Positions 321 through 12,492 of a DNA stretch of 12,492 bases are shown here, one piece after another. A program made the position numbers and the translations under genes. The notes beneath the pieces are model-generated. The model made no database searches and was not told the DNA's origin. It saw nothing but the letters and a program-made list of their open reading frames with translations. The stretch comes from an uncultured archaeon (GTDB taxonomy: Archaea > Iainarchaeota > Iainarchaeia > Iainarchaeales > CSSED10-239), in assembly GCA_964463155.1 (NCBI GenBank), contig CAYXAY010000020.1:1-12492 (forward strand), given 5' to 3'. Each line of letters opens with the position of its first letter. Positions within the stretch are counted from its first letter, which is position 1.

Positions 321-656
321 TTACTGCACTCCTTCTAAATCATCTAGGTTTTCTTGCTTGTCTTTGCTATCTTGCTTTGTTGCAGAATTGATTTTTTTAA
401 AAATAAGGTCTTCTTGCTTTTGTATGTTTTTTATCCTTAAGTCGATTGTATCTTTTAGGTCCTTTGTATCTTTTATGACATCTTCTTTGTCAGAAAGAAT
501 AAAGATATTTCCAACACCTTTGTAAACCTTCTTTTCCTTTGTCTTTTCTAACTCTTTAACTGTGTTATCAAGAACATTTATCTGAAATTGTAATTGTTGT
601 TTTTGCTGTGTTAAAAACAATAATCGCTGTCTATATACATTTGCATTTTCGCTCAT
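321..656 (-). CDS. pfdB: Prefoldin beta subunit
   Basis: 111-aa coiled-coil protein (..QQKQQLQFQINVLDNTVKELEKT..VYKGVGNIFI..). Last position of the exosome superoperon. Its start overlaps the upstream stop by ATGA. Confidence 0.8.
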   Translation of the reverse strand: MSENANVYRQRLLFLTQQKQQLQFQINVLDNTVKELEKTKEKKVYKGVGNIFILSDKEDVIKDTKDLKDTIDLRIKNIQKQEDLIFKKINSATKQDSKDKQENLDDLEGVQ

Positions 657-904
657 AAATCCACCTCATAAGTTTTTTTAATCAATTCTAAAAGATTAAT
701 GTAATTGTTTATTGTTGCTTTGTAGGCTGTTATGTCCTTACAATCTATGTTTATCTTTATTGCCTTTGGCTTTGCTAAAACCGTTATTTTTGAAGACGAT
801 CTTTTAAAGTCCTTTCTATTCATCTCAAGCTCTAAAAGCTCCTTTAGCTTTTTAGGGTTGCTAGTCTTTATTATCAATTCCTCTGAAATTATAGAACCAA
901 TCAT
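653..904 (-). CDS. pcc1: KEOPS subunit Pcc1-like small protein
   Basis: 83 aa. The C-terminal ITAYKATINNYINLLELI resembles the Pcc1 helix (..aLRAalNsylrwl..). It sits in the conserved slot between Brix and prefoldin beta, with ATGA overlaps on both sides. Confidence 0.6.
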   Translation of the reverse strand: MIGSIISEELIIKTSNPKKLKELLELEMNRKDFKRSSSKITVLAKPKAIKINIDCKDITAYKATINNYINLLELIKKTYEVDL

Positions 905-1335
905 AAACTTTCCTCTTTTATTTTAAAAGAAAAGAAAAGCTCCTTGTTTATTTCAAAGCTTATTGTGTTGTTCTCTTGCTTTGCCTTTGTTTCTGAATCT
1001 TTGTCAATTTCTTCAAGGAAATAAAATAATTTCCCTTTGGCATTGATGGTTGTTATCTTTTTCTTTGGTTTTTTGTAAAGGACATCTGTTATTGTGAATA
1101 ACTTCTCTGGGAAATATTCCTTATCTTTTCTTTTGTAGATTAATAATTTTATATTGTCTTTCTTTTTTCCCACAAGCAAAAGATGATTGTAGCCAATATA
1201 GTTTGATTTTTCAAAGATTTTTTTAAGTGTGGTTTCTCCTCTAGGTATGTGCCTTACTTCTGGAAGAAACTTAGCTAAATGCTTGCAAAATCTTTTTTGA
1301 AAAATCTTGGCGTTTCTTGAAGTCGTAATTATCAT
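901..1335 (-). CDS. Brix-domain (Imp4-like) ribosome biogenesis protein
   Basis: The N-terminus MIITTSRNAKIFQKRFCKHLAKFLP..IPRGETTLKKI matches the archaeal Brix signature (llTTSRkPs.r.r.f.keL....RGk.sl). Superoperon position supports the call. Confidence 0.75.
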   Translation of the reverse strand: MIITTSRNAKIFQKRFCKHLAKFLPEVRHIPRGETTLKKIFEKSNYIGYNHLLLVGKKKDNIKLLIYKRKDKEYFPEKLFTITDVLYKKPKKKITTINAKGKLFYFLEEIDKDSETKAKQENNTISFEINKELFFSFKIKEESL

Positions 1336-1464
1336 CTAGTCAGCCTTTACCTTCTTTACAACAGGCATTCTTTTCTTGTAAAATATTCTTCCTGAACAGC
1401 TTTTACATTTCTTGCTTTCTGGCATAGAATTGTAAACTTCATTACATTTTCCACAATAGTACAT
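1336..1464 (-). CDS. rpoP: DNA-directed RNA polymerase subunit P (Rpo12/RPC10), 42 aa; absent from the supplied ORF track
   Basis: Hand translation: MYYCGKCNEVYNSMPESKKCKSCSGRIFYKKRMPVVKKVKAD, a CxxC...CxxC zinc ribbon. AGGTGA SD overlaps the rpl37ae stop. The stop TAG at 1336-1338 abuts the Brix ATG. Expected superoperon slot between L37Ae and Brix. Confidence 0.75.
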   Translation of the reverse strand: MYYCGKCNEVYNSMPESKKCKSCSGRIFYKKRMPVVKKVKAD

Positions 1465-1472
1465 GATTTCAC

Positions 1473-1697
1473 CTATTGACCTGCTGTTTTGTATTTGTAA
1501 GCACCACCTGAAACCTTTGTCTTACATTTTTTGCATTGAAAGATTCCTGTTGCCACTCTTTTTATCTTGTCTTTTGTTCCACATTTTGGACAAACTTTTT
1601 TGCTTTTGTCCTCAATTGCTAGAAGGTATTTCTTTCTAATACCTACTCCCCCTCTTACTCCGTACTTTCCTGTCTTTTTAACTTTTTTTGTGTTCAT
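1473..1697 (-). CDS. rpl37ae: Ribosomal protein L37Ae (eL43)
   Basis: ..TGKYGVRGGVGIRKK..CPKCG..KRVATGIFQCKKCKTKVSGGAY. Typical eL43 zinc-ribbon sequence. Confidence 0.9.
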   Translation of the reverse strand: MNTKKVKKTGKYGVRGGVGIRKKYLLAIEDKSKKVCPKCGTKDKIKRVATGIFQCKKCKTKVSGGAYKYKTAGQ

Positions 1698-2503
1698 TTT
1701 TCTTCACATATTTTTGTTTTTATTTCTGAATATTTCTTTGTTGCGACATCCATTATCTGGTTGATGTCAGAAATCTTGAAGGTTCCGTTTCCTCCGCCTT
1801 TGTGATAAGCAACAACGGCGTTACCCACAACTCCTAGAGTAAACCTAGAGTCACTTGCTAAATCTTCAACCTCTGTTGCGTCAGCAAATAACTTGTTTTT
1901 TGATTTCCAGAAGGTAAAAGATACTGCTATCTTTTTTAGGTCGATATTGAGTTTCTTGTTTGTGTATTCTTTTAAAACTATGCTATTGTTCTCGTCAAGC
2001 TTTGGAATCTTACAATCAAGTAAAGCTGCCATTGCTGCGTATTGTCCAGCATCTATCAAATTACCGTCTGCATTTAAGGCATAACAATCAACATAGACAA
2101 TAAATGATTTTTCTCCAGTAACTATGTTTAAGTCTTTAAAATCAATACATTTTGAAGACCTTATTACTCTGTCAACAATTCTTCCATATTCCATAGCAGG
2201 AATACTTGGTGGTCCGGTGTCTATGTCTGCTGAGGCTATTCCTGACATCTCAAGATTAATCACTATTGAACCTTCGTTGGGAGAATCTGGATAAGGGGTT
2301 CCTACTACAAACTTTACGCCCGCAATAATTTCAGTATTGCCAAGCTTTGCCCATGCTGAGCCGTCTGCCGATGTCATTACTCCTCTTTTGATTTCAAGAG
2401 ACCTGTATTCTAATAAATCCCTATTGTCAAATCTTTTGTTTTCAAAAATTAATTTTCTTGCATTGTCTGATTTTAGTATCTTTAGAATATCTGTGTCACT
2501 CAT
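1694..2503 (-). CDS. rrp42: Exosome complex subunit Rrp42 (RNase PH-like, non-catalytic)
   Basis: RFDNRDLLEYRSLEIKRGVMTSADGSAWAKLGNTEIIAGVKFVVGTPYPDSPNEG is an RNase PH fold signature. ATGA overlaps with rrp41 and rpl37ae. Confidence 0.85.
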   Translation of the reverse strand: MSDTDILKILKSDNARKLIFENKRFDNRDLLEYRSLEIKRGVMTSADGSAWAKLGNTEIIAGVKFVVGTPYPDSPNEGSIVINLEMSGIASADIDTGPPSIPAMEYGRIVDRVIRSSKCIDFKDLNIVTGEKSFIVYVDCYALNADGNLIDAGQYAAMAALLDCKIPKLDENNSIVLKEYTNKKLNIDLKKIAVSFTFWKSKNKLFADATEVEDLASDSRFTLGVVGNAVVAYHKGGGNGTFKISDINQIMDVATKKYSEIKTKICEEK

Positions 2504-3207
2504 TGTATGTCACCTTCCATTGGATATTTTTCAACAAGCGCTTTTTTTTGAATCTCATATATTTTTTCTGCGCCTTTTAGAGCAGTTTCTAGGATTTTTG
2601 AACAATCTTTTTTGTCAACAAAACCATCCATTTGAAGAAGTGCAAGTTCTTGTTGTGGCATCAAAAAAGCACAAGCCATGTCAACAGCATCCTCTGTGTC
2701 CTCGTCTTCTTTGTCAAGATCAAGAACAAGCGCCCCATTTGCTCTTCCTGCTGCTACTGCGCTTATTAGTCCTTTCATTGGAAGACCCGCCTCAGCTACA
2801 GCTAAGCTTGCTGCTGTTAATGCTGCAACTCTCGTTCCTGCATCTGCTGAAAATATTAAAACATTAACATCTATCATTGTATTTGGGAATTGATCAACCA
2901 TTACTGCTGCTTCTAGAGCGTGACCTGAAACCAAGGAAATTTCTTTATCTCTTTTTCCAGGAACTGGTGATTTTCTTTCAGAAACAGAAAAGCTTGCCAT
3001 TCTGTATTTGTAGTCTATTATTGCTTTTGTAGGGTCTGCTAAATGTTTAGGGAAAACTGGTCTTGGACCGTTTACTGTTGCAACAACTATATTTTTGCCC
3101 CACTCTAAATAACAGGAACCATCTGCATTCTTTGCAATCCCAAGCTCAATCTTTATGGGACGCAACTCATCTAAAGACCTTCCATCTAGTCTTTTTGCAT
3201 TACTCAT
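2500..3207 (-). CDS. rrp41: Exosome complex exonuclease Rrp41 (RNase PH-like, catalytic)
   Basis: RLDGRSLDELRPIKIELGIAKNADGSCYLEWGKNIVVATVNGPR is the canonical Rrp41 N-terminus. GGAGAG SD upstream. Confidence 0.9.
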   Translation of the reverse strand: MSNAKRLDGRSLDELRPIKIELGIAKNADGSCYLEWGKNIVVATVNGPRPVFPKHLADPTKAIIDYKYRMASFSVSERKSPVPGKRDKEISLVSGHALEAAVMVDQFPNTMIDVNVLIFSADAGTRVAALTAASLAVAEAGLPMKGLISAVAAGRANGALVLDLDKEDEDTEDAVDMACAFLMPQQELALLQMDGFVDKKDCSKILETALKGAEKIYEIQKKALVEKYPMEGDIQ

Positions 3208-3221
3208 TTTTATCTCTCCTC

Positions 3222-3830
3222 TTATTGATTATTTTTTAAGTATTCTTCTATTGTGTTTGTAAGATTTGCTTTTTGCGAATTTCTAATTATCATTGAAATT
3301 GCATTTTCTAAAAGACCAGCGTTCTTTGAAACATACCAAATCCAGCCGTTTCTTCCAATTAAGATATTTGATTGAGTGTATTTCTTTAAGATGTTTAGCA
3401 TCGAATCGTTTTTTCCAATTATCCTTGGAATCTTTACTGAAGAAACCGAATAGATTAATCCGTCTGGAAGAATGTTAATGTTATCAAGCTCAGAAACATC
3501 GGCTCCATCTACTCCTTTTACTCTTGCAAAAAGAATCTGTCCAATCTTTAGTTCTTTTGTTATCAAAGACTTTGGAAAGAAACAATCGCTATGGGAATTT
3601 ACATCAATGATATAGCCATTTGCTGTGACATTTCTTACCACACAAACTATTGGATCGTTTTCTTGTGGGATATATGGCCCATTTAATGGAACTATAGAAA
3701 CAAAATCGTCTGTTTCATTTAATATGCCAAGAACTGAGCTGTGTATTTTTTCTTCAGTGATAAAAATATTTTCCCCAACTTTTTTTTTCTTATCTGTGAT
3801 TAACTCTCCAGGAACTACTATTCTTTTCAT
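3222..3830 (-). CDS. rrp4: Exosome RNA-binding subunit Rrp4 (N-terminal, S1 and KH domains)
   Basis: VVPGELI N-terminal motif, an S1-like segment NDPIVCVVRNVTANGYIIDV, and a KH-like segment ILIGRNGWIWY. Superoperon position supports the call. Confidence 0.85.
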   Translation of the reverse strand: MKRIVVPGELITDKKKKVGENIFITEEKIHSSVLGILNETDDFVSIVPLNGPYIPQENDPIVCVVRNVTANGYIIDVNSHSDCFFPKSLITKELKIGQILFARVKGVDGADVSELDNINILPDGLIYSVSSVKIPRIIGKNDSMLNILKKYTQSNILIGRNGWIWYVSKNAGLLENAISMIIRNSQKANLTNTIEEYLKNNQ

Positions 3831-3846
3831 TTATTTTCACTCTTTT

Positions 3847-4542
3847 TTATTTTAAAACATTGACTATTACTGACCCGTGCGTGATGTTGTTTAAATCAGT
3901 TAACAGTTTTGATTTTAGACCTATAGGCAAAGTCACCCTTGCAAACAATCCTCCGCTTGGTAGCCATTTTTCCTCAAGAATCTCATACTTGTGAAGAACA
4001 GGCATTAATTTTCCAGAGTATTGAGCAGTAACCTCAACTGACATAACAATCTTTTCCATAGAGATTGGCATTGCCTTTTTTAGAACAAGCATAACTTCGT
4101 TTAACTCGTCGTCTTTTTTTCTGGAAAGACTAAACTTAAATTTTGCGGATTCTAAAGCATTGAGAATTCTTTGTGGTGGTATTGGTGTCATATCTTTTGG
4201 GTCATGTGCATTTTTTGTTATAAAGTATATAATCTCGCTTTCTCTTCTTTTAAGCATCTCGTTTCTTTGTGATGTTGTTAATTGAACATCGCCGTCATGT
4301 ATTATTTTTTTTGCAATTGTCAAAAAATCAGTTGTCTGGAAAACTTCCTTTATCACTTCTTCTGAAGCCAGTTTTCCTTTTGCTGAATCTGAATAAACTT
4401 CTTCCATTGCAAACATCTCGTCAAAGTTTATTTCTGTTTTTCCGTGCTTGTAGTCCCAAGCCTTGTAAGGATCAACAAATATCTCAAAGCGGTGCCCATT
4501 TCTACTAAGTCTTGCAATTACTGCATCATCTAATTTTACCAT
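3847..4542 (-). CDS. sdo1: SBDS/Sdo1 family ribosome maturation protein
   Basis: MVKLDDAVIARLSRNGHRFEIFVDPYKAWDYKHG is the typical archaeal SBDS N-terminus. GGGGTGAT SD upstream. Confidence 0.85.
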   Translation of the reverse strand: MVKLDDAVIARLSRNGHRFEIFVDPYKAWDYKHGKTEINFDEMFAMEEVYSDSAKGKLASEEVIKEVFQTTDFLTIAKKIIHDGDVQLTTSQRNEMLKRRESEIIYFITKNAHDPKDMTPIPPQRILNALESAKFKFSLSRKKDDELNEVMLVLKKAMPISMEKIVMSVEVTAQYSGKLMPVLHKYEILEEKWLPSGGLFARVTLPIGLKSKLLTDLNNITHGSVIVNVLK

Positions 4543-4554
4543 TATTAATCACCC

Positions 4555-5280
4555 CTATAATAACTTTGAATATTTTTCTAAAGGAACTATAGCATCTTGA
4601 TCTCCGTTCTCTGCAATATTTATTACTTGTATGCTTTGAGGGTTTAGTTTTTGTTTTGGCTCAAGGTTTAAGGATATTGCTTTTATTGCAATTGTTAATG
4701 CTTCTTCAAAGCTTAGGTTTTCCTTGAAATTTTTCTCTAGATAGCCTATTATTTTTTGTTTGTTTTGGCCTATTGCTAATGCCTTGTAGGCGGTTATTGC
4801 TCCGCTTGGTTCTGCTTCAAATATATGCTTTCCTAAAGAATCGTAGCCCGCAATTATCAATGAAACACCAAATGGTCTTCCTCCGCCATATTGTGTGAAA
4901 TATTGCATTATTGATGCTATTTTTCTTACTAATGCTTCCACTTCAATTGGTTGATCGTAGTAGGTTCTGTTCTCTTGAGACATTTGTCTTGCAAAATCAA
5001 CTAGTCTTCTTCCGTCCCCTATTAGTCCTGCACAGGTTGTCCAGACATGGTTGTCTATCTTAAATACCTTTTCTACTGATTCTGGTAGAACCAAAGAAGA
5101 ATGGATTTTCTTGTCTGCCACTATTATTATGCCTTGCTTGTAGATTATTGCCACTGCTGGGCTTCCTTTTTCAATGATTTTGGAGGCATAGTCCACTTGA
5201 TAGAGATGTCCTTCTGGACTAAACATTGTTGTTGAACGATCATAGCCGGCAGCTGCTGCGCCAATAGCATTTGGAATCAA
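4555..5280 (-). CDS. psmA: Proteasome alpha subunit (TTG start)
   Basis: YDRSTTMFSPEGHLYQVDYA is the hallmark alpha-subunit motif and requires a start upstream of it. The only in-frame start is TTG at 5280-5278, preceded by GGTGA 6 nt upstream. Confidence 0.9.
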   Translation of the reverse strand: MIPNAIGAAAAGYDRSTTMFSPEGHLYQVDYASKIIEKGSPAVAIIYKQGIIIVADKKIHSSLVLPESVEKVFKIDNHVWTTCAGLIGDGRRLVDFARQMSQENRTYYDQPIEVEALVRKIASIMQYFTQYGGGRPFGVSLIIAGYDSLGKHIFEAEPSGAITAYKALAIGQNKQKIIGYLEKNFKENLSFEEALTIAIKAISLNLEPKQKLNPQSIQVINIAENGDQDAIVPLEKYSKLL

Positions 5281-5302
5281 ATTTATTCACCATTTTTAGA
5301 AT

Positions 5303-5325
5303 TTTTTAATATAAATATAAATGTG
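5303..5325 (-). promoter_or_regulatory. Candidate TATA/BRE region for the psmA-to-pfdB operon
   Basis: The minus strand reads TTTATATTTATATTAAAAAA about 25-40 nt upstream of the psmA SD and TTG. An AT-rich background makes this weak evidence. Confidence 0.3.
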
Positions 5326-5391
5326 TAAAACATAGTTATCTACTAAGAAATATTATGGATAAGAAGTATTTAAAAAGCTTAAGTTATTAAC

Positions 5392-5399
5392 AAAAAAAA
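5392..5399 (-). terminator. Oligo-T (T8) tract downstream of the membrane-protein gene
   Basis: A8 on the plus strand equals T8 on the minus strand, 18 nt after the stop at 5418-5420. Archaeal termination typically occurs at oligo-T tracts. Confidence 0.35.
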
Positions 5400-5417
5400 G
5401 AGAAATTGGCCGCTTTA

Positions 5418-5918
5418 TTAAAAAGCAGCTTTGGCTTCCTTGGAAAATATCAAGTAGCCTGCGATAAATCCGTAGATTACAATTCCTGCGATATTTGATA
5501 GGTCTCCAGTGAATAATAGACCTATAATTGCTCCAAAAAATGCAAGGCATGCAAGTATCATTATTACATATCTTGCCCAGTTTTTTAGCTTAAACAAACT
5601 TAAACCAAGATAAAATATGAAAGCACCCCATATTATTGCAAGAATTCCAATTATCAAAAAGAATGTTGGAGTATAGAATGCAAAAACTTGCGGACCTACT
5701 GTTGCTGTTGATTTCAATAAGTAATCATTTGCTTTCTTTGGAAAGATTATTATCAATACGCCAAACAGAAAGGCTAAGATTGAAACAATTATATAATATG
5801 TTGAAATTATCTTTATGCCTAGTGGTTTTGTGTGCTTTGTTTCTACTTTCTTTTCTACTGGTTTACTCGCGACTTTCTTTGCTAGCGCTTCTTCCGTAAT
5901 TTTCTTTTTTACTGCCAT
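5418..5918 (-). CDS. Small integral membrane protein: Lys-rich N-terminal tail plus about 4 TM helices, function unknown
   Basis: Four long hydrophobic stretches by eye: IISTYYIIVSILAFLFGVLIIIF, FFLIIGILAIIWGAFIFYLGL, YVIMILACLAFFGAIIGLLF and IAGIVIYGFIAGYLIF. AGGTGA SD lies inside the 3' end of the Pop5 gene. Confidence 0.6.
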   Translation of the reverse strand: MAVKKKITEEALAKKVASKPVEKKVETKHTKPLGIKIISTYYIIVSILAFLFGVLIIIFPKKANDYLLKSTATVGPQVFAFYTPTFFLIIGILAIIWGAFIFYLGLSLFKLKNWARYVIMILACLAFFGAIIGLLFTGDLSNIAGIVIYGFIAGYLIFSKEAKAAF

Positions 5919-5921
5919 TTT

Positions 5922-6251
5922 TTATTTCACCTTTTTTATTGTGCTTTTTATGTCTTTTACTTTTAGCAACCCTAGATCGGATTGAGCAAAAAACAAAGAC
6001 GCAATAAATGTATCTAAATATTCTTTGTTAATTCTTATTAATAACGTTTTGGTTTTTTGTTCAGTGTCAATAATTGTGATGTTTGTTTCAATTTGAGAAA
6101 ATATCCCACTTTGTTTTTGTAAGGCCTTGTAAAGTATTGTTTGCACTATCTTGGAATCTATTGGCTGGTTATAGGTAAGCAATTGCAATTGCAAATATCT
6201 TTTTTTGTGCCTTAAAGTCGGCTTTATTACTGCTAGTCTTTTCTTTTTCAT
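5922..6251 (-). CDS. rnp2: RNase P protein component 2 (Pop5 homologue)
   Basis: IKPTLRHKKRYLQLQL matches the Pop5 N-terminal signature (lPptlRekkRYl). About 110 aa. Follows Rpp30 with an ATGA overlap. Confidence 0.75.
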   Translation of the reverse strand: MKKKRLAVIKPTLRHKKRYLQLQLLTYNQPIDSKIVQTILYKALQKQSGIFSQIETNITIIDTEQKTKTLLIRINKEYLDTFIASLFFAQSDLGLLKVKDIKSTIKKVK

Positions 6252-6841
6252 ATATTTTCTGTTAATGTTCTTTTGATAAGTGGTTTTTCTAAATTAAAAT
6301 TTTTTAAAAACTCCTGAATAATAACAGGGTCAAGTAATTCATCTGCAGTTTTTGCATAGCTGATAAACTTAAACTCTATTTTGTGTTTTTCAAGTATTGG
6401 GATACTGAACTGCATCTGTTTGATTGATTTGTTCTGGTTGTTTCTTATCTGGTTTATGTTGAAGAAAAATAGTTTGTTGTTTTGCTTTGCTATTCTTGCT
6501 AATCCCTCGTCAATGCTGGTTTCCTGGACTATTGGGTCGAATAAATGGATAGGGATTTTGGTTGAGAGTATATTAGATATTGCTAGGATGTCCTTACCTT
6601 GTCCAAGAATTACTGTGTTTTTCGAAATAATTGATTTGCAGGTGTTTAAGAGATTGAGGTCTGTAAACAAAAGCGCTTTTCTAAATTGTTTTCCAGACGG
6701 CAAAGGATAATCTACATCTTCTTTTGTTTTTACTTCTTTAATCACATAAATTGTATAAATACCTAATTGTTCTAAATTCTTTGAAATATTCGGATATTTG
6801 AATAACTCACTTGAAACAAAATCAATATATTTTTCTTTCAT
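6248..6841 (-). CDS. rnp3: RNase P protein component 3 (Rpp30 homologue), divergent
   Basis: The size, the pattern YIDF..LGIYTIYV..VILGQG..IHLFDP..IAKQNNKLFFFNINQI..KFISYAKTADELLDP (compare Rpp30 yDl..lGy..v.gg..vDil.p..la..n.vafEi.l..itSgA.s..elr.P), and its position just upstream of Pop5. Confidence 0.6.
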   Translation of the reverse strand: MKEKYIDFVSSELFKYPNISKNLEQLGIYTIYVIKEVKTKEDVDYPLPSGKQFRKALLFTDLNLLNTCKSIISKNTVILGQGKDILAISNILSTKIPIHLFDPIVQETSIDEGLARIAKQNNKLFFFNINQIRNNQNKSIKQMQFSIPILEKHKIEFKFISYAKTADELLDPVIIQEFLKNFNLEKPLIKRTLTENI

Positions 6842-8542
6842 TTACATTTTCTCCGGAATTTCTATTCCTAAAAGCCATGTTGCATTTTCTAGTGTTTGCA
6901 AATAACTTATTATTAATGCAAGCCTTTGTTCTGTAAGTTCTTTGTCATCAGAGATAACTTGACAATTTCCATAGAACTTATTGAATGTGTGGGACAAGTC
7001 AAGACAGAAGCTAACAACGGCGTTTGGTTTTCTTTCTCTTGTCGCATATTCTGCCTTTGCTGGAAACTGCATAATCAAACTTAATAATTTCTTTTCATCA
7101 TTTTCTAGTTTTTTTGGACTAGGCACTTTTGTAAATTCTTTGAAATTTGCTTTTCGTAGAATGCTTTTTGCCCTAACTCCGCTGTATTGGACATATACTG
7201 AAGAGTCTCCTTGAAGATCAAGAGCTGAATTTATATCAAACACAAATGTCTTGTTAAAACCAATCTTTAACATCTCAAACTTTATTGTTCCAAAAACAAT
7301 TTTGTCAATTATGTCTTTGTCGTGCGCTAGGTTGTTTTCTGTTAGCACATCCTTTACTTTTTCCCTTAATATATCCCTTAAGTCTTCGTAAAGAACCATG
7401 CCACCTGCGCGCGAAGCCATTTTTCCACTAGAAAGATTGACCATCCCAAGAGACAAGTGTTCGTGAGTTGTGCTAGGATATACTTTTGAAAATAAATAAA
7501 ATAGTTGTCTAAAATAAAAATCCTGTTCAGAACCAACAACATAAATAAAATGATTGCATTTTGGAAACTTTTCTTTTTTTATTTGAACAAGAGCTATGTC
7601 TTTTGCGCCGTAAAGTGGTGCGCCATTCTTTTTTATTAATACCAAAACATCAAGCTTTTTGTCCTTCAAGTCAGCAATAACTGCATCATCGCTTTCTTGG
7701 ATTCTGTCTTTGTGTTCTTTAATAAAAGAATCTTTAATATCTAAAAATCTCTTTTCGGTTTCACTTTCAAATATTTTGTCGATAAGCTCTATTCCCAGTT
7801 CGTCTTTGACCTGCATGTATGCCATATAGCAGACATCTCTAAGCCTAGCTATTTCTTTTTGTAATTTTGGGTCAATTAAAATCTGTTTTTGTAAATTGTC
7901 TATTTCTTTTGTGGAGTTTTCATTAACTTTTGCCTTTTCTCCTGCAGCAATGTAAATTTCTCCAAACCATTTGGCGACATTAATTTTTGGAATATTTTGT
8001 TTTTCTTTTGGAAGTTGAAGATAATACCAGTACCACTTGGCAACATGCGTTCCTACATCTCCGCCATAATAAACCGGCCGTGGGTCGTATCCACAAAAAG
8101 AAAGAAGGCGATTTATTGAATCCCCACCAACAACCATTCTTAAATGTCCTACATGAAGCGTCTTGAAGGTATTGGCGTTAAATGTATCAATAACATATTG
8201 TTCTTTTTTACCAATATCTGATTTCCCATATTCTTTTTTTTTGTTTAAAACTTCAGAAATTGTTTCTTTGTAAAGTATATTGTTGTTAATTTTTACATTT
8301 ATGTAACCGGCAACGGAAACAAAATCAAAGATATTTTGCTTTTCTTTTTTTAGTTTTTCAACCAAGTCTTTGGAAATGTCTTGAGGTGATTTCTTCAGAT
8401 TCGTTGCTAAGGAAAAACAAGGAAAGGATAAATCTCCAAGTTCAAAATCTGGCGGCTCTTCTATTGTTTTAATAATTTCAGAAATGTCTTTATCAATAAC
8501 CTTTGAAAGGTCATTTGCAAATTTTTCTTTAAAGTTTATCAT
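6842..8542 (-). CDS. argS: Arginyl-tRNA synthetase
   Basis: Class I HIGH motif (TLHVGHLR), the ArgRS-type KMSKS substitute (GKMASRAGG), and an anticodon-binding C-terminus. I prefer the ATG at 8542 (AGGT SD 8 nt upstream) over the ORF-track TTG at 8548. The stop abuts the rnp3 ATG. Confidence 0.9.
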   Translation of the reverse strand: MINFKEKFANDLSKVIDKDISEIIKTIEEPPDFELGDLSFPCFSLATNLKKSPQDISKDLVEKLKKEKQNIFDFVSVAGYINVKINNNILYKETISEVLNKKKEYGKSDIGKKEQYVIDTFNANTFKTLHVGHLRMVVGGDSINRLLSFCGYDPRPVYYGGDVGTHVAKWYWYYLQLPKEKQNIPKINVAKWFGEIYIAAGEKAKVNENSTKEIDNLQKQILIDPKLQKEIARLRDVCYMAYMQVKDELGIELIDKIFESETEKRFLDIKDSFIKEHKDRIQESDDAVIADLKDKKLDVLVLIKKNGAPLYGAKDIALVQIKKEKFPKCNHFIYVVGSEQDFYFRQLFYLFSKVYPSTTHEHLSLGMVNLSSGKMASRAGGMVLYEDLRDILREKVKDVLTENNLAHDKDIIDKIVFGTIKFEMLKIGFNKTFVFDINSALDLQGDSSVYVQYSGVRAKSILRKANFKEFTKVPSPKKLENDEKKLLSLIMQFPAKAEYATRERKPNAVVSFCLDLSHTFNKFYGNCQVISDDKELTEQRLALIISYLQTLENATWLLGIEIPEKM

Positions 8543-8560
8543 AATCAATTACCTTTAAGG

Positions 8561-8633
8561 CGAGCCCGGAGGGATTCGAACCCTCGACCCACAGCTTAGA
8601 AGGCTGTTGCCCTATCCACTAGGCCACGGGCCC
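8561..8633 (-). tRNA. tRNA-Arg (anticodon UCU), 73 nt, no intron, CCA not encoded
   Basis: Folded by hand. Acceptor GGGCCCG/CGGGCTC (one G-U pair). D stem GCCT/GGGC with loop AGTGGATA. Anticodon stem ACAGC/GCTGT with loop CTTCTAA. Variable region GGGTC. T arm GAGGG-TTCGAAT-CCCTC. Discriminator G. Confidence 0.9.
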
Positions 8634-10067: not shown

Positions 10068-10144
10068 AGTATCACCTTCTTATGCTTAACTATAAAAATT
10101 GTAATTATAATATATTATATGTATAGATAAAAATTTAAAAACAA
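10068..10144. promoter_or_regulatory. Divergent intergenic region (DsbA-like gene to the left, taw1 to the right) with several TATA-like boxes
   Basis: Contains aactataaaaatt, ataatatattatatgtatagataaaaatttaaaaa. There is no SD before taw1, so a leaderless or short-leader transcript is possible. Weak evidence in AT-rich DNA. Confidence 0.3.
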
Positions 10145-11155
10145 ATGGTTTTTATGGCAAAAAAATTAATTGATAAAAAGATATCTGATGATTTAAGGCA
10201 TAAGCATTATGCACTTATTGGAGAGCACTCTGCTGTTGAAATTTGTGAATGGAACAAGAAGGCTCTTAGAGGAGAAGGTGTTTGTTACAAACAGCAATTC
10301 TATAACATTGAGTGCCATAGATGCGCACAAATTACTCCTGCCGTTGTTTGGTGCCATAACAATTGTATTTTCTGTTGGAGACCTGCAGAATACATGACTA
10401 TGGATAAGTTTACTAAAGAATATTATGATGATTCTAAAAAAATAATTGATGAATTATTTGAACAAAGAAAGAAATTGCTTTCTGGTTTTGGGGGCTTTCC
10501 AAAGGTATCTAAGGCACTTTTAAAAGAAGCTGAGATTCCAAGTCATGTTGCTATTTCTCTTTCCGGAGAGCCAACGCTTTATAAGGATCTTTGGAGACTT
10601 ATTAAAGAACTTAAATCTAGAAAAGAAATCAAAAGCATCTTTGTTGTTACAAACGGTCTTGAGCCAACAACACTTGAAAGTCTTTCAAAACACAAAAGTC
10701 TTCCAACACAACTTTATCTTTCTTTTGTTGCTCCAAATAAAGAGCTTCATTTAAAGATTAATAAGCCAAAGATAAAATACTCTTGGGAAAGATTAATGAA
10801 AACTGTTTCCTTGTTCCCAAAATTAAAAACTAGAAAAGTTATAAGATTTACATTAATCAAAGGAATAAATGACAATAAAAAATACATTAAAAACTTTGTA
10901 AAAATCTTTGAAAAGACAAAGGCGGATTTTGTTGAGATTAAGGCCTATATGTTTTTGGGGTATTCTAGAAAGACTTTAAAGATAGAAAACATGCCCAGCT
11001 TTGATGATTGTTTGAAGTATGCTAAAGCTTTTGAGAAACTTTCAAAAAACTACAAGATATCAGACACTTGTAAGCCCTCAAGAATCATTCTTCTAAAAAA
11101 CAAGAAATCAAAAGTGGATAATTTTATAATTAAAAGAAAAAGAAAAAAGAAATGA
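10145..11155 (+). CDS. taw1: tRNA 4-demethylwyosine synthase Taw1/TYW1 (radical SAM)
   Basis: HSAVEICEWNKKALRGEGVCYKQQFYNIECHRCAQITPAVVWCHNNCIFCWRP matches the archaeal Taw1 signature: three auxiliary-cluster Cys plus the CxxxCxxC radical-SAM motif followed by WR. An alternative start at ATG 10154 is possible. Confidence 0.85.
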   Translation: MVFMAKKLIDKKISDDLRHKHYALIGEHSAVEICEWNKKALRGEGVCYKQQFYNIECHRCAQITPAVVWCHNNCIFCWRPAEYMTMDKFTKEYYDDSKKIIDELFEQRKKLLSGFGGFPKVSKALLKEAEIPSHVAISLSGEPTLYKDLWRLIKELKSRKEIKSIFVVTNGLEPTTLESLSKHKSLPTQLYLSFVAPNKELHLKINKPKIKYSWERLMKTVSLFPKLKTRKVIRFTLIKGINDNKKYIKNFVKIFEKTKADFVEIKAYMFLGYSRKTLKIENMPSFDDCLKYAKAFEKLSKNYKISDTCKPSRIILLKNKKSKVDNFIIKRKRKKK

Positions 11156-12030
11156 CAGAAATAAATGAATACCAAAAAGCAATAGTTGAAGCTTTGCAAA
11201 AAGAAAAGACCATTTGTCTTCTGGCTCCTAGCTTTCCAGTAGATTTTTCTTTCCCGGATATTGTTCTGGATCTTAGAAGACTTGGCTTTACAATGGTTGT
11301 TGAGCTGACTTATGCTGCAAAGCTTATCAATTACAAATATATTAGCACAATTAATGATAACCCAGAAAAACAATTTATTTGCGCAAACTGCCCAACAATT
11401 GTAAAACTTATAGAAAATCAATATCAAGAGCATAAAGACAAGATACTTGATGTGGCTTCTCCAATGATCGTCATGGCTAAATTTGTAAAAAGAGAATTTG
11501 GAGAAGATTATAAAACAATTTTTATAGGACCTTGCCTTGCTAAAAAACAAGAGGCTAAGGAGAATTCTGAAGTTATTGATTTTGCATTAACATTTAAAGA
11601 GCTTGTAGACATTTATGACTACTTAGAGGAAAACAAATTGCTTAAGGAGATAGATAATAACCCTGAAAACAAGCAATTCGACAAATTCTATAATGATGTG
11701 ACAAAGATTTATCCTCTTGGTGGAGGAGTTACAAGTAATTTGATAACGAAAGATATTCTTAATCTTGATGAAGTCATTGTTTGCGATGGCCCTCATTGTA
11801 TTGAAAAAGCAATGTTTGATTTTACAAACAACAAGAGACATAGATTTTTAGATATCCTTTTCTGCGAGGGCGGTTGTCTTGGCGGTCCAGGAATTATTTC
11901 AAAGGAAGATTTAGAACCCAAAAAACAAAGGATATTTGATTATAAAGATAAATCGAGATATTATCAACCAGATAAAAACTATGGTAAGTTCGTTCACGCT
12001 TTCGGTCTTGATATTAAAAGAAAAAAGTGA
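11152..12030 (+). CDS. Stand-alone [FeFe]-hydrogenase large-subunit H-domain homologue, 292 aa (minimal HydA-like or Nar1-like FeS protein)
   Basis: Four motifs occur in the order found in H-domains. LAPSFPV compares with APavR. FICANCP (C77, C80) compares with L1 TSCCP. IGPCLAKKQEA (C128) compares with L2 MPCxxKKxE. ILFCEGGCLGGPG (C238, C242) compares with L3 ExMxCxxGCxxGGGQ. There is no N-terminal ferredoxin-like domain. The start overlaps the taw1 stop (ATGA). Confidence 0.65.
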   Translation: MTEINEYQKAIVEALQKEKTICLLAPSFPVDFSFPDIVLDLRRLGFTMVVELTYAAKLINYKYISTINDNPEKQFICANCPTIVKLIENQYQEHKDKILDVASPMIVMAKFVKREFGEDYKTIFIGPCLAKKQEAKENSEVIDFALTFKELVDIYDYLEENKLLKEIDNNPENKQFDKFYNDVTKIYPLGGGVTSNLITKDILNLDEVIVCDGPHCIEKAMFDFTNNKRHRFLDILFCEGGCLGGPGIISKEDLEPKKQRIFDYKDKSRYYQPDKNYGKFVHAFGLDIKRKK

Positions 12031-12062
12031 TTTTGTGGCTACCAGAACTCCAAAAATAAACC

Positions 12063-12079
12063 AAATCGCTTCGCGATTT
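12063..12079. repeat. Short hairpin AAATCGC-TTC-GCGATTT in the IS right-end region
   Basis: Read directly. Its CGCGAAGCG core (minus strand) resembles the 208-222 hairpin core. Confidence 0.4.
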
Positions 12080-12089
12080 AATGTTTATT

Positions 12090-12136: not shown

Positions 12137-12139
12137 TTA

Positions 12140-12492
12140 TTAATTAATTTGCATGTAACTGCTCATACTTTTTTTTCCGTCGTTAATATATTTTCTTACT
12201 GTTTCTACAGTTACTTTTCCTATACTTTCGTAATAGGTATACTTGCTCCAGAAATGTCCTTTGGGATATTTTTTTTTAAATCCAGGAAAGATTGTAAAAA
12301 TGTTATGTGCTGTGTTTGACTTCAACAAGCAGATTGCTTGTCGTATGCACATAGTTGTTGGCAATTCAAGAAACAGATGTATCTGATCAACATCTGTTTC
12401 TTGTGTATGGATTTTTATGTTATATTTTTAAGATACAACATTAAAAATGTCTTTTACTATTTCGCTCATAAAAACATTACAAAATGTATTAT
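12140..12492 (-). pseudogene. tnpA: tnpA (IS200-type Y1 transposase) with an in-frame TAA and a mutated HUH motif
   Basis: Hand translation in a single frame: ..NTFCNVFMSEIVKDIFNVVS*KYNIKIHTQETDVDQIHLFLELPTTMCIRQAICLLKSNTAHNIFTIFPGFKKKYPKGHFWSKYTYYESIGKVTVETVRKYINDGKK.. It aligns with IS608 TnpA (..VEIIEMQTDKDHIHILADIDP...LWTNSCFISTVG...VKQYIENQ). The stop codon is at 12428-12430, where copy 1 has CAA. HUH reads Q-I-H. Confidence 0.65.
12367..12403. repeat. Perfect 13-bp inverted repeat (14 bp with one extra T-A pair) inside the tnpA coding sequence
   Basis: caagaaacagatg (12367-12379), then the 11-nt spacer tatctgatcaa, then catctgtttcttg (12391-12403). It spans the codons for QETDVDQIHLFL, which is the HUH region. 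Confidence 0.7.

Follow-up and report, generated by a model that had tools for sequence, protein, structure and literature searches.

The smallest known [FeFe] hydrogenases, of interest both as streamlined H2 catalysts and for the physiology of DPANN archaea, are those of group E, ultraminimal DPANN-archaeal enzymes with a mean length of 286 residues that form the sister group of the bacterial sensory group C and are represented by the Ca. Forterrea multitransposorum enzyme, known as Fm (Greening et al., Cell 2024, PMC11216029). Fm binds 4.2 ± 0.4 Fe per protein, equal to one [4Fe-4S] cluster, and takes up the synthetic [2Fe]adt cofactor into a well-defined environment, with sharp CO and CN bands in Fourier-transform infrared spectra. 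After this maturation it evolves H2 in vitro, and in protein film voltammetry it is bidirectional, with a bias to proton reduction (PMC11216029). Here we examine a 12,492-bp stretch of DNA from an uncultured archaeon (contig CAYXAY010000020.1 of assembly GCA_964463155.1, forward strand; hereafter the window, which is the whole contig) and in it a gene, hydA, whose 292-residue product, judged by its sequence, almost certainly belongs to the group E ultraminimal [FeFe] hydrogenases. This kind of enzyme was named and characterised in 2024, and the window gene adds one member to it.

The comparison with Fm carries this assignment. A scan of GTDB contigs with one genome per species gave 329 pattern matches, 252 of which encode a relative. 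One of the loci, L014, is in the closed genome of Ca. Forterrea multitransposorum (CP045477.1, 839,632 bp), and we equate its product P0040 (286 aa) with the Fm enzyme. An alignment of 289 residues shows 53% identity between the window protein and P0040, and the two share the motif blocks LLAPSF, IC-x-NCP, ASPM, GPC-x-x-KKQEAKEN and LFC-x-GGC-x-GGPGIIS, as well as the gene order PsmA-Pop5-hyp-ArgRS-DsbA-like / TYW1-hydA. A neighbour-joining (NJ) tree with 200 bootstraps, comprising the sequences of the related loci, 24 further representatives of small clusters, 18 multidomain outgroups and the window protein, unites the window protein, Fm and their relatives in a clade with 96% bootstrap support, in which the window subclade and the Fm subclade each reach 100%. 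It is because of the 53% identity, the shared gene order and the 96% clade that we file the window open reading frame (ORF) under group E. The closest relatives are metagenome-assembled genomes of Iainarchaeota, the syntenic ones labelled Iainarchaeum, Diapherotrites, Forterrea or archaeon, and Forterrea is itself placed in Ca. Iainarchaeota. A larger protein search returned 302 relatives, and nearly every one of the best 120 is a PF02906 domain standing alone, with 281-299 aa. The window protein thus has what describes group E: a stand-alone H-domain of about 286 residues, a place with Fm in the NJ tree, and a DPANN host. An earlier note on this DNA, made from the letters alone, had mentioned reports of very small homologues in DPANN-type archaea; these are the group E enzymes of Greening et al. 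2024, and the 53% identity to Fm ties the ORF to them.

The product of hydA has a mass of 33.8 kDa and a pI of 5.75. It matches Pfam PF02906 (Fe_hyd_lg_C) with an E-value of 1.2e-37 and 130.3 bits against a cut-off of 22.1, and the match spans residues 20-246, corresponding to positions 3-245 of the 245 in the profile, so that the H-domain is covered end to end. Pfam detects no second domain in the 292 residues and no F-cluster or ferredoxin domain; the roughly 45 residues C-terminal to the H-domain have no further Pfam match, and the eight cysteines (22, 77, 80, 128, 211, 216, 238 and 242, located by script) include no ferredoxin-type motif. The note's description of an ultra-short, stand-alone H-domain without an F-cluster domain, shorter than the algal HydA-type enzymes, is borne out: the protein is close to the group E mean and has about 165 residues fewer than CrHydA1 (457 aa), formerly the minimal enzyme, which also lacks F-clusters. 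NCBIfam returns [FeFe] hydrogenase models only, all below their full-length cut-offs, since the protein is devoid of every accessory domain. The group A cut-offs are not reached (TIGR02512, 55.7 bits against 405.95). The best NCBIfam match, itself below threshold, is to the group B1 model TIGR04105, in its C-terminal half; the shared H-domain explains it, and it does not speak for membership of group B.

The sequence was mapped onto solved structures by comparing the PDB sequences with the protein (phmmer) and with a profile of its 72-sequence family (hmmsearch). Every match was an [FeFe] hydrogenase (CpI, HydABC alpha, CbA5H, CrHydA1 and DdH). In the HMMER alignments, C77-A78-N79-C80-P81 falls on CpI T297-S298-C299-C300-P301, S103-P104-M105 on S323-P324-Q325, G126-P127-C128 with K131 and E134 on M353-P354-C355 with K358 and E361, and L236-F237-C238 with C242 on M497-A498-C499 with C503. 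Further upstream, the HydABC alpha alignment places 'cLLaPs' on 'GMIAPA', and we take A25-P26-S27 to correspond to CpI A230-P231-S232, the contacts of the distal CN ligand. Given these correspondences, all four cluster ligands (C80, C128, C238 and C242, on CpI C300, C355, C499 and C503) and the CN-binding lysine are in place. The note had put the landmarks LAPSFPV, CANCP, GPCLAKKQE and FCEGGCLGGPG at residues 24, 77, 126 and 237, where a script also finds them. It had read the four cysteines as H-cluster ligands and the L2 lysine as kept (K131, on CpI K358), and had listed as deviations an Asn for the relay Cys, the replacement of both Met residues and GGPG for GGGQ; the CpI alignments agree on each point.

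An AlphaFold2 model built on the family alignment has a mean confidence (pLDDT) of 94.9 and a pTM of 0.92, with 0 residues below 70. Among the 50 PDB matches listed by Foldseek, all are [FeFe] hydrogenases, headed by CbA5H, CpI and HydABC-alpha (E 1e-14 to 1e-12, query TM-score 0.70-0.78, identity 17-20%), so that the predicted structure matches solved H-domains, the check that the note had proposed. According to this model, the window protein has the fold of the H-domain superfamily.

The feature that sets the protein apart from the prototypical enzymes is its L1 motif. The note had called it non-canonical, and it does differ from TSCCP, but C-x-N-C-P is the norm of the family rather than a peculiarity of this ORF: N79 and C80 are present in 120/120 homologues and C77 in 118/120, and P81, C128, K131, E134, C238 and C242 are likewise invariant among the 120. 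Other small stand-alone clusters have A, P, V, S, T, N or H at the N79 position. A second deep branch of such proteins, with Dojkabacteria or Saccharibacteria labels plus two archaea, reads I-[AS]-S-P-C-P at L1, with neither the Asn nor Cys77. C-x-N-C-P is, from these alignments, a subclade signature, defined by an invariant Asn and a nearly invariant extra Cys, and not a one-off deviation. The L1 motif of Fm is C-G-N-C-P, and Fm is active, so that an Asn at the position of the relay Cys is compatible with turnover. The features of the window are collected in the table.

Table. Coordinates of hydA, its motifs and the other features of the window, by position.
Feature	Position	Strand	Details
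Archaeal 'exosome superoperon' block	321-6841	-	
Arginyl-tRNA synthetase gene	6842-8548	-	
tRNA-Arg (anticodon TCT)	8559-8633	-	Same strand as the arginyl-tRNA synthetase gene and directly upstream of it, with 10 nt to the start codon
AT-rich divergent intergenic region	10068-10144		Between a DsbA/thioredoxin-like gene (-) and TYW1 (+)
TYW1, 4-demethylwyosine synthase (radical SAM)	10145-11155	+	TIGR03972, 349.9 bits against a cut-off of 317.95
hydA, group E ultraminimal [FeFe] hydrogenase gene (assigned from sequence)	11152-12030	+	ATG start, TGA stop, 292 aa, H-domain only
L24-A-P-S-F-P-V30 codons	11221-11241	+	Located by script; L23, L24, A25, P26, S27 and F28 invariant in the 72-sequence alignment
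L1 motif C77-A-N79-C80-P81	11380-11394	+	From CpI alignments; C80 at a [4Fe-4S]H ligand position, C77 an extra Cys
L2 motif G126-P-C128-L-A-K131-K-Q-E134	11527-11553	+	From CpI alignments; P127, C128, K131 and E134 invariant
L3 motif F237-C238-E-G-G-C242-L-G-G-P-G247	11860-11892	+	From CpI alignments; C238 and C242 invariant
Inverted repeat, terminator-like hairpin (putative)	12060-12082		30 nt past the hydA stop; consensus match only
IS200-like Y1 transposase remnant	12137-12430	-	PF01797, E 2.5e-16, profile positions 38-120 of 121; in-frame stop; contig end

Set against the described enzymes, the window protein is nearest to Fm: each consists of an H-domain alone (286-292 aa), comes from a DPANN host of the Iainarchaeota type and is encoded in a TYW1-hydA pair. 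Fm differs in belonging to the separate subclade with 100% support, and in being followed by NifU-Suf genes, whereas an IS200-like remnant follows the window gene. Among characterised enzymes, the one closest to Fm is TmHydS, a group C enzyme from Thermotoga maritima with 28% identity to it (PMC11216029). In TmHydS the positions of C299 and M497 are taken by A131 and S267, with G, S or T at M353, and an alternative proton pathway has been postulated (PMC10055695). The window protein resembles it in having lost the canonical relay and both Met residues (N79, L236 and G126), although the C299 position is an invariant Asn here and an Ala in TmHydS. In TmHydS the H-domain is preceded by an iron-sulfur (FeS) cluster and followed by FeS and PAS domains, and the enzyme favours H2 oxidation; in the window protein Pfam finds nothing besides the H-domain, and so none of the sensory architecture of groups C and D. 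Beyond the small stand-alone clusters, its nearest relatives are proteins of 480-1035 aa in which the H-domain begins at about residue 60-75. With CpI and CrHydA1 of group A the window protein shares the fold, the four Cys ligands and the equivalents of K358, E361, P231, S232 and P324; it differs in its condensed loops, in a structural-alignment identity of 17-20%, and in that C299, E279, E282, S319, R286, M353 and M497 are not conserved.

Two database entries deserve a remark. P0006, a stand-alone H-domain of 292 aa that is 77% identical to the window protein, is named 'two-component system, NtrC family, sensor kinase' by JGI (the Joint Genome Institute), which is probably an annotation carried over from the sensory (group C) hydrogenases fused to signalling domains. 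P0130, a protein of 4122 aa from a representative library, matches the H-domain in 14 stretches, and its CxGGC motifs return every 444 aa. It is group-A-like ('MFTSCC') and was set aside as unrelated to group E; either several hydrogenases are joined in tandem here, or the sequence was misassembled.

If the protein works as Fm does, C80, C128, C238 and C242 would hold its one [4Fe-4S] cluster, with C242 bridging to [2Fe]H in a pocket lined by A25-P26-S27, P104-M105 and K131. Since there is no accessory FeS or relay cluster, this H-cluster would have to trade electrons directly with a soluble carrier of low potential, for which reduced ferredoxin is the most likely candidate. The group E H-cluster is described as solvent-exposed and without a relay, and ferredoxin has been proposed as its electron carrier (PMC11216029). 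Since none of the residues of the group A relay is conserved, protons would have to take another path, bypassing C299, E279, S319, E282 and R286 and perhaps running past the invariant N79; besides N79, this route could involve the nearly invariant C77 and bound water. By analogy with Fm, the enzyme would be bidirectional and biased to proton reduction, and its role in the cell would be the release of surplus reductant as H2. We consider it probable, again by analogy, that the window protein works as an H2-evolving hydrogenase in the cell, and the observations as a whole are, in our judgement, rather well explained if hydA encodes the group E catalytic subunit of an Iainarchaeota-type DPANN archaeon.

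Several points weigh against this picture. For the window protein itself, activity, electron donor and direction are read across from Fm by analogy. The group A proton relay is gone, with C299 replaced by N79, E282 by K62, R286 by T66 and S319 by L99, and with E279 in a gap of the CpI alignment; in prototypical enzymes, M497L or loss of C299 is crippling (PMC10055695). As the note had observed, domain scans find no hydE, hydF or hydG in the 12,492 bp of the window, the genome beyond the contig lying outside the search. The closed Fm genome is devoid of all three maturases, and most archaeal genomes with [FeFe] hydrogenase genes lack them too (PMC11216029); with no maturases in the Fm genome, group E proteins may or may not carry [2Fe]H in the cell. 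The surroundings of hydA, finally, are a radical S-adenosylmethionine (SAM) enzyme of tRNA modification and housekeeping genes, not fermentation genes.

The same surroundings recur across the archaeal loci. The stop of TYW1 and the start of hydA share 4 nt (ATGA), and TYW1 lies directly upstream of hydA in 20/22 archaeal loci, where the spacing ranges from -17 to +45 nt and hydA identities from 44 to 78% (noted for the window and loci L001-L015, L018, L019, L025, L026, L044 and L048). Because of the ATGA overlap, and as the sole non-coding space upstream precedes TYW1, the two genes probably form one transcription unit, with the AT-rich intergenic region as its likely promoter region. A scan of the window for sigma-70 promoters gave background level, the bacterial consensus being not applicable to archaea. 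The whole housekeeping block is syntenic in these archaea, so that vertical inheritance of gene order suffices to account for the adjacency of TYW1. No ferredoxin gene was found among the small ORFs that lie between hydA and its neighbours in the related loci; judged by eye, these are toxin-antitoxin, cation antiporter, H+-pyrophosphatase and S19e-like genes.

The family also extends beyond the archaea. The best 80 relatives of the GTDB scan are mostly bacteria of the candidate phyla radiation (CPR), with SR1, Absconditabacterales, Gracilibacteria, "Peribacteria", Dojkabacteria, "Saccharibacteria" and Microgenomates among their labels, and close homologues with the same C-x-N-C-P motif are common in CPR bacteria of the Absconditabacteria, Gracilibacteria and SR1 types (loci L016-L056 and L064). 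In 34 loci the hydA gene contains 3-11 in-frame TGA codons, which is why we take TGA to be read as sense there; the sequences of these TGA-as-sense CPR loci are 45-55% identical to the window protein, as near to it as Fm is. Public translations of such genes show Trp at the invariant Gly 191, 240 and 241 (P0044-P0120; 37-48 of the 120 sequences), whereas translation with code 25 regains Gly at 240 and 241 in 31/31 sequences; the public versions apparently decode TGA as Trp (code 4) where Gly (code 25) is meant, which would mislead any motif analysis of the CxGGC region of L3. The alignment columns affected by Trp for Gly are G191, G240, G241 and G244-G247.

The CPR C-x-N-C-P sequences fall inside the 96% NJ clade together with the Iainarchaeota enzymes, from which we take it that the gene has crossed the domain boundary, moving between two groups of ultra-small symbionts. 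A first NJ tree had the CPR sequences nested among the archaeal ones; this topology was dropped, as with outgroups added the archaeal sequences are monophyletic in 24% and the window subclade joins the CPR sequences in 7.5% of 200 bootstraps. Archaeal group E was described as monophyletic (PMC11216029). With CPR homologues present and a bootstrap of 24%, we do not recover an archaea-specific group, a result that bears on how the family is described and not on the membership of the window protein. Among the papers searched, none describes such enzymes, whether as group E or as [FeFe] hydrogenases at large, from Absconditabacteria, Gracilibacteria or Patescibacteria, and the account of group E (PMC11216029) makes no mention of the TYW1-hydA pairing, CPR bacteria, radical SAM or wyosine; the CPR spread of close homologues and the adjacency of the C-x-N-C-P subclade to radical-SAM genes in both domains may be new.

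This adjacency takes a different form in the bacteria. Among the TGA-as-sense loci (L016-L050), 25 have a RimO-like methylthiotransferase gene (UPF0004 and Radical_SAM; TIGR00089 303.6 bits, cut-off 251) no more than three genes away from hydA, and 22 have a HemW-like gene (Radical_SAM and HemN_C; below the TIGR00539 cut-off) downstream of hydA, both on the hydA strand. The RimO-like gene is upstream in most loci and downstream in six (L035, L042, L043, L047, L049 and L050), which include the deepest-branching, so the proximity of the two genes outlasts rearrangement. Three unrelated radical-SAM families beside the same small protein in two domains are suggestive of a functional link, one that could bear on maturation without HydEFG and on the cellular role of group E enzymes.

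How far can this neighbourhood be taken? Nar1 (NARF), a component of cytosolic iron-sulfur protein assembly, is an H-domain homologue without hydrogenase activity that carries an N-terminal ferredoxin-like cluster with four Cys, and the note had left open whether the ORF is a minimal hydrogenase or a Nar1-like FeS protein. In the latter case the protein would be FeS-only in the cell, with an empty [2Fe] pocket, and its task would be to carry clusters or serve as an adaptor in the manner of Nar1, or to be a small redox partner, for FeS and radical-SAM enzymes such as TYW1. The missing maturases fit such a protein, which like Nar1 would be an H-domain homologue in organisms without HydEFG (as in the Fm genome), and so does the overlap of hydA with the stop of TYW1, an enzyme with two [4Fe-4S] clusters, in a pair kept in 20/22 archaeal loci. 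The NifU, SufB/D and SufC genes directly downstream in the Fm subclade and the RimO-like and HemW-like genes flanking the TGA-as-sense CPR homologues point the same way, an association with FeS-client and assembly genes reminiscent of the role of Nar1. The resemblance stops at the N terminus: C22 is the sole Cys before L1, and the four-Cys region of Nar1 is absent. The diiron contacts A25-P26-S27, P104 and K131 and the bridging C242 are invariant over hundreds of homologous sequences, which speaks for an occupied pocket, although Nar1 proteins keep some diiron-contact residues too. There is no specific link to Nar1 in the Pfam and PDB matches of the window protein, no phylogeny with Nar1 having been made, and the syntenic housekeeping block means that the TYW1 adjacency may be inherited gene order. 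For Fm, both the uptake of [2Fe]adt into a well-defined environment and H2 turnover have been shown (PMC11216029). With 53% identity to this active enzyme, the hydrogenase half of the note's alternative is favoured and the Nar1-like half disfavoured; we regard an FeS-only protein as unlikely.

If instead the H-cluster is real, it may run in the uptake direction, oxidising environmental or host H2 and passing the electrons to radical-SAM enzymes (TYW1) or other acceptors in cells without flavodoxin/reductase systems. The H2/H+ couple lies near the potentials of radical-SAM clusters, and the radical-SAM adjacency recurs in two domains. An H-cluster that is solvent-exposed and has no relay would suit this role, and the nearest multidomain relatives have a sensory (group C/D-like) architecture, TmHydS preferring H2 oxidation (PMC11216029). 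The bias of Fm towards H+ reduction in protein film electrochemistry (PMC11216029) runs counter to it, and the partnership with TYW1 is read from gene adjacency; we hold uptake to be improbable, and markedly so. A related proposal covers the C-x-N-C-P subclade common to Iainarchaeota and the TGA-as-sense CPR bacteria (Absconditabacteria/Gracilibacteria type), whose protein would be a dedicated radical-SAM partner rather than mainly a fermentative H2 valve. It would deliver low-potential electrons, possibly from H2, to the radical-SAM [4Fe-4S] cluster, or hand over or repair that cluster, standing in for flavodoxin/reductase systems in ultra-reduced genomes. These are housekeeping genes in compact genomes, where chance adjacency is possible, so the pattern is not proof, and we think a dedicated partner quite unlikely. 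That hydA is a decaying or chance ORF without function might be suggested by the absent maturases and the adjoining IS200-like remnant, but the ORF is intact, aligns end to end with homologues of 285-299 aa at 44-79% identity, has 34 invariant columns in the 72-sequence alignment and yields a confident structure model, and this conservation effectively refutes the idea, to which we give next to no credence. The preferred reading is an H2-evolving group E hydrogenase; worth following in this family are the maturation problem, the Asn-based proton path, the CPR spread and the radical-SAM linkage.

The remaining genes of the window bear out the note's view of an archaeal host, with exosome Rrp4/41/42, proteasome alpha, RNase P Pop5, SBDS and TYW1 among the neighbours. 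The 'exosome superoperon' block comprises prefoldin beta, Pcc1, a 144-aa ORF without a match, L37ae, Rrp42, Rrp41, Rrp4 and SBDS, together with proteasome alpha, a 166-aa membrane protein, RNase P Pop5 and a conserved 197-aa ORF. The last of these (6248-6841), which has no Pfam match, occupies the slot of a possible RNase P Rpp30-like subunit. Scans of the window for tRNA genes and Rfam families return the tRNA-Arg only.

The two archaeal subclades part ways downstream of hydA. In the Fm subclade (L001 and L014, both Ca. Forterrea, L013, L015, L018 and L019), a convergent NifU-SufB/D-SufB-SufC cluster begins at most 3 nt downstream of hydA on the opposite strand; the window subclade has a major facilitator superfamily (MFS) transporter, toxin-antitoxin genes or RadA in its place. 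In the window itself this position is held by the IS200-like remnant, where its relatives of 77-78% identity have the MFS transporter or RadA, and the assembly probably broke at the insertion sequence.

The second deep branch of small stand-alone H-domain proteins mentioned above covers loci L055-L084 (Dojkabacteria, 'Saccharibacteria' and Microgenomates labels) and includes the archaeal loci L079 and L082. Its members have neighbours of their own: a membrane protein of about 172-195 aa, mostly divergent and upstream, without a Pfam or NCBIfam match and also present in archaeal L082, and a cytidine/dCMP-type deaminase gene, the start of which shares 1 nt with the hydA stop. Genes for CTP synthase and for an ADP-forming acetyl-CoA synthetase are close by in these loci.

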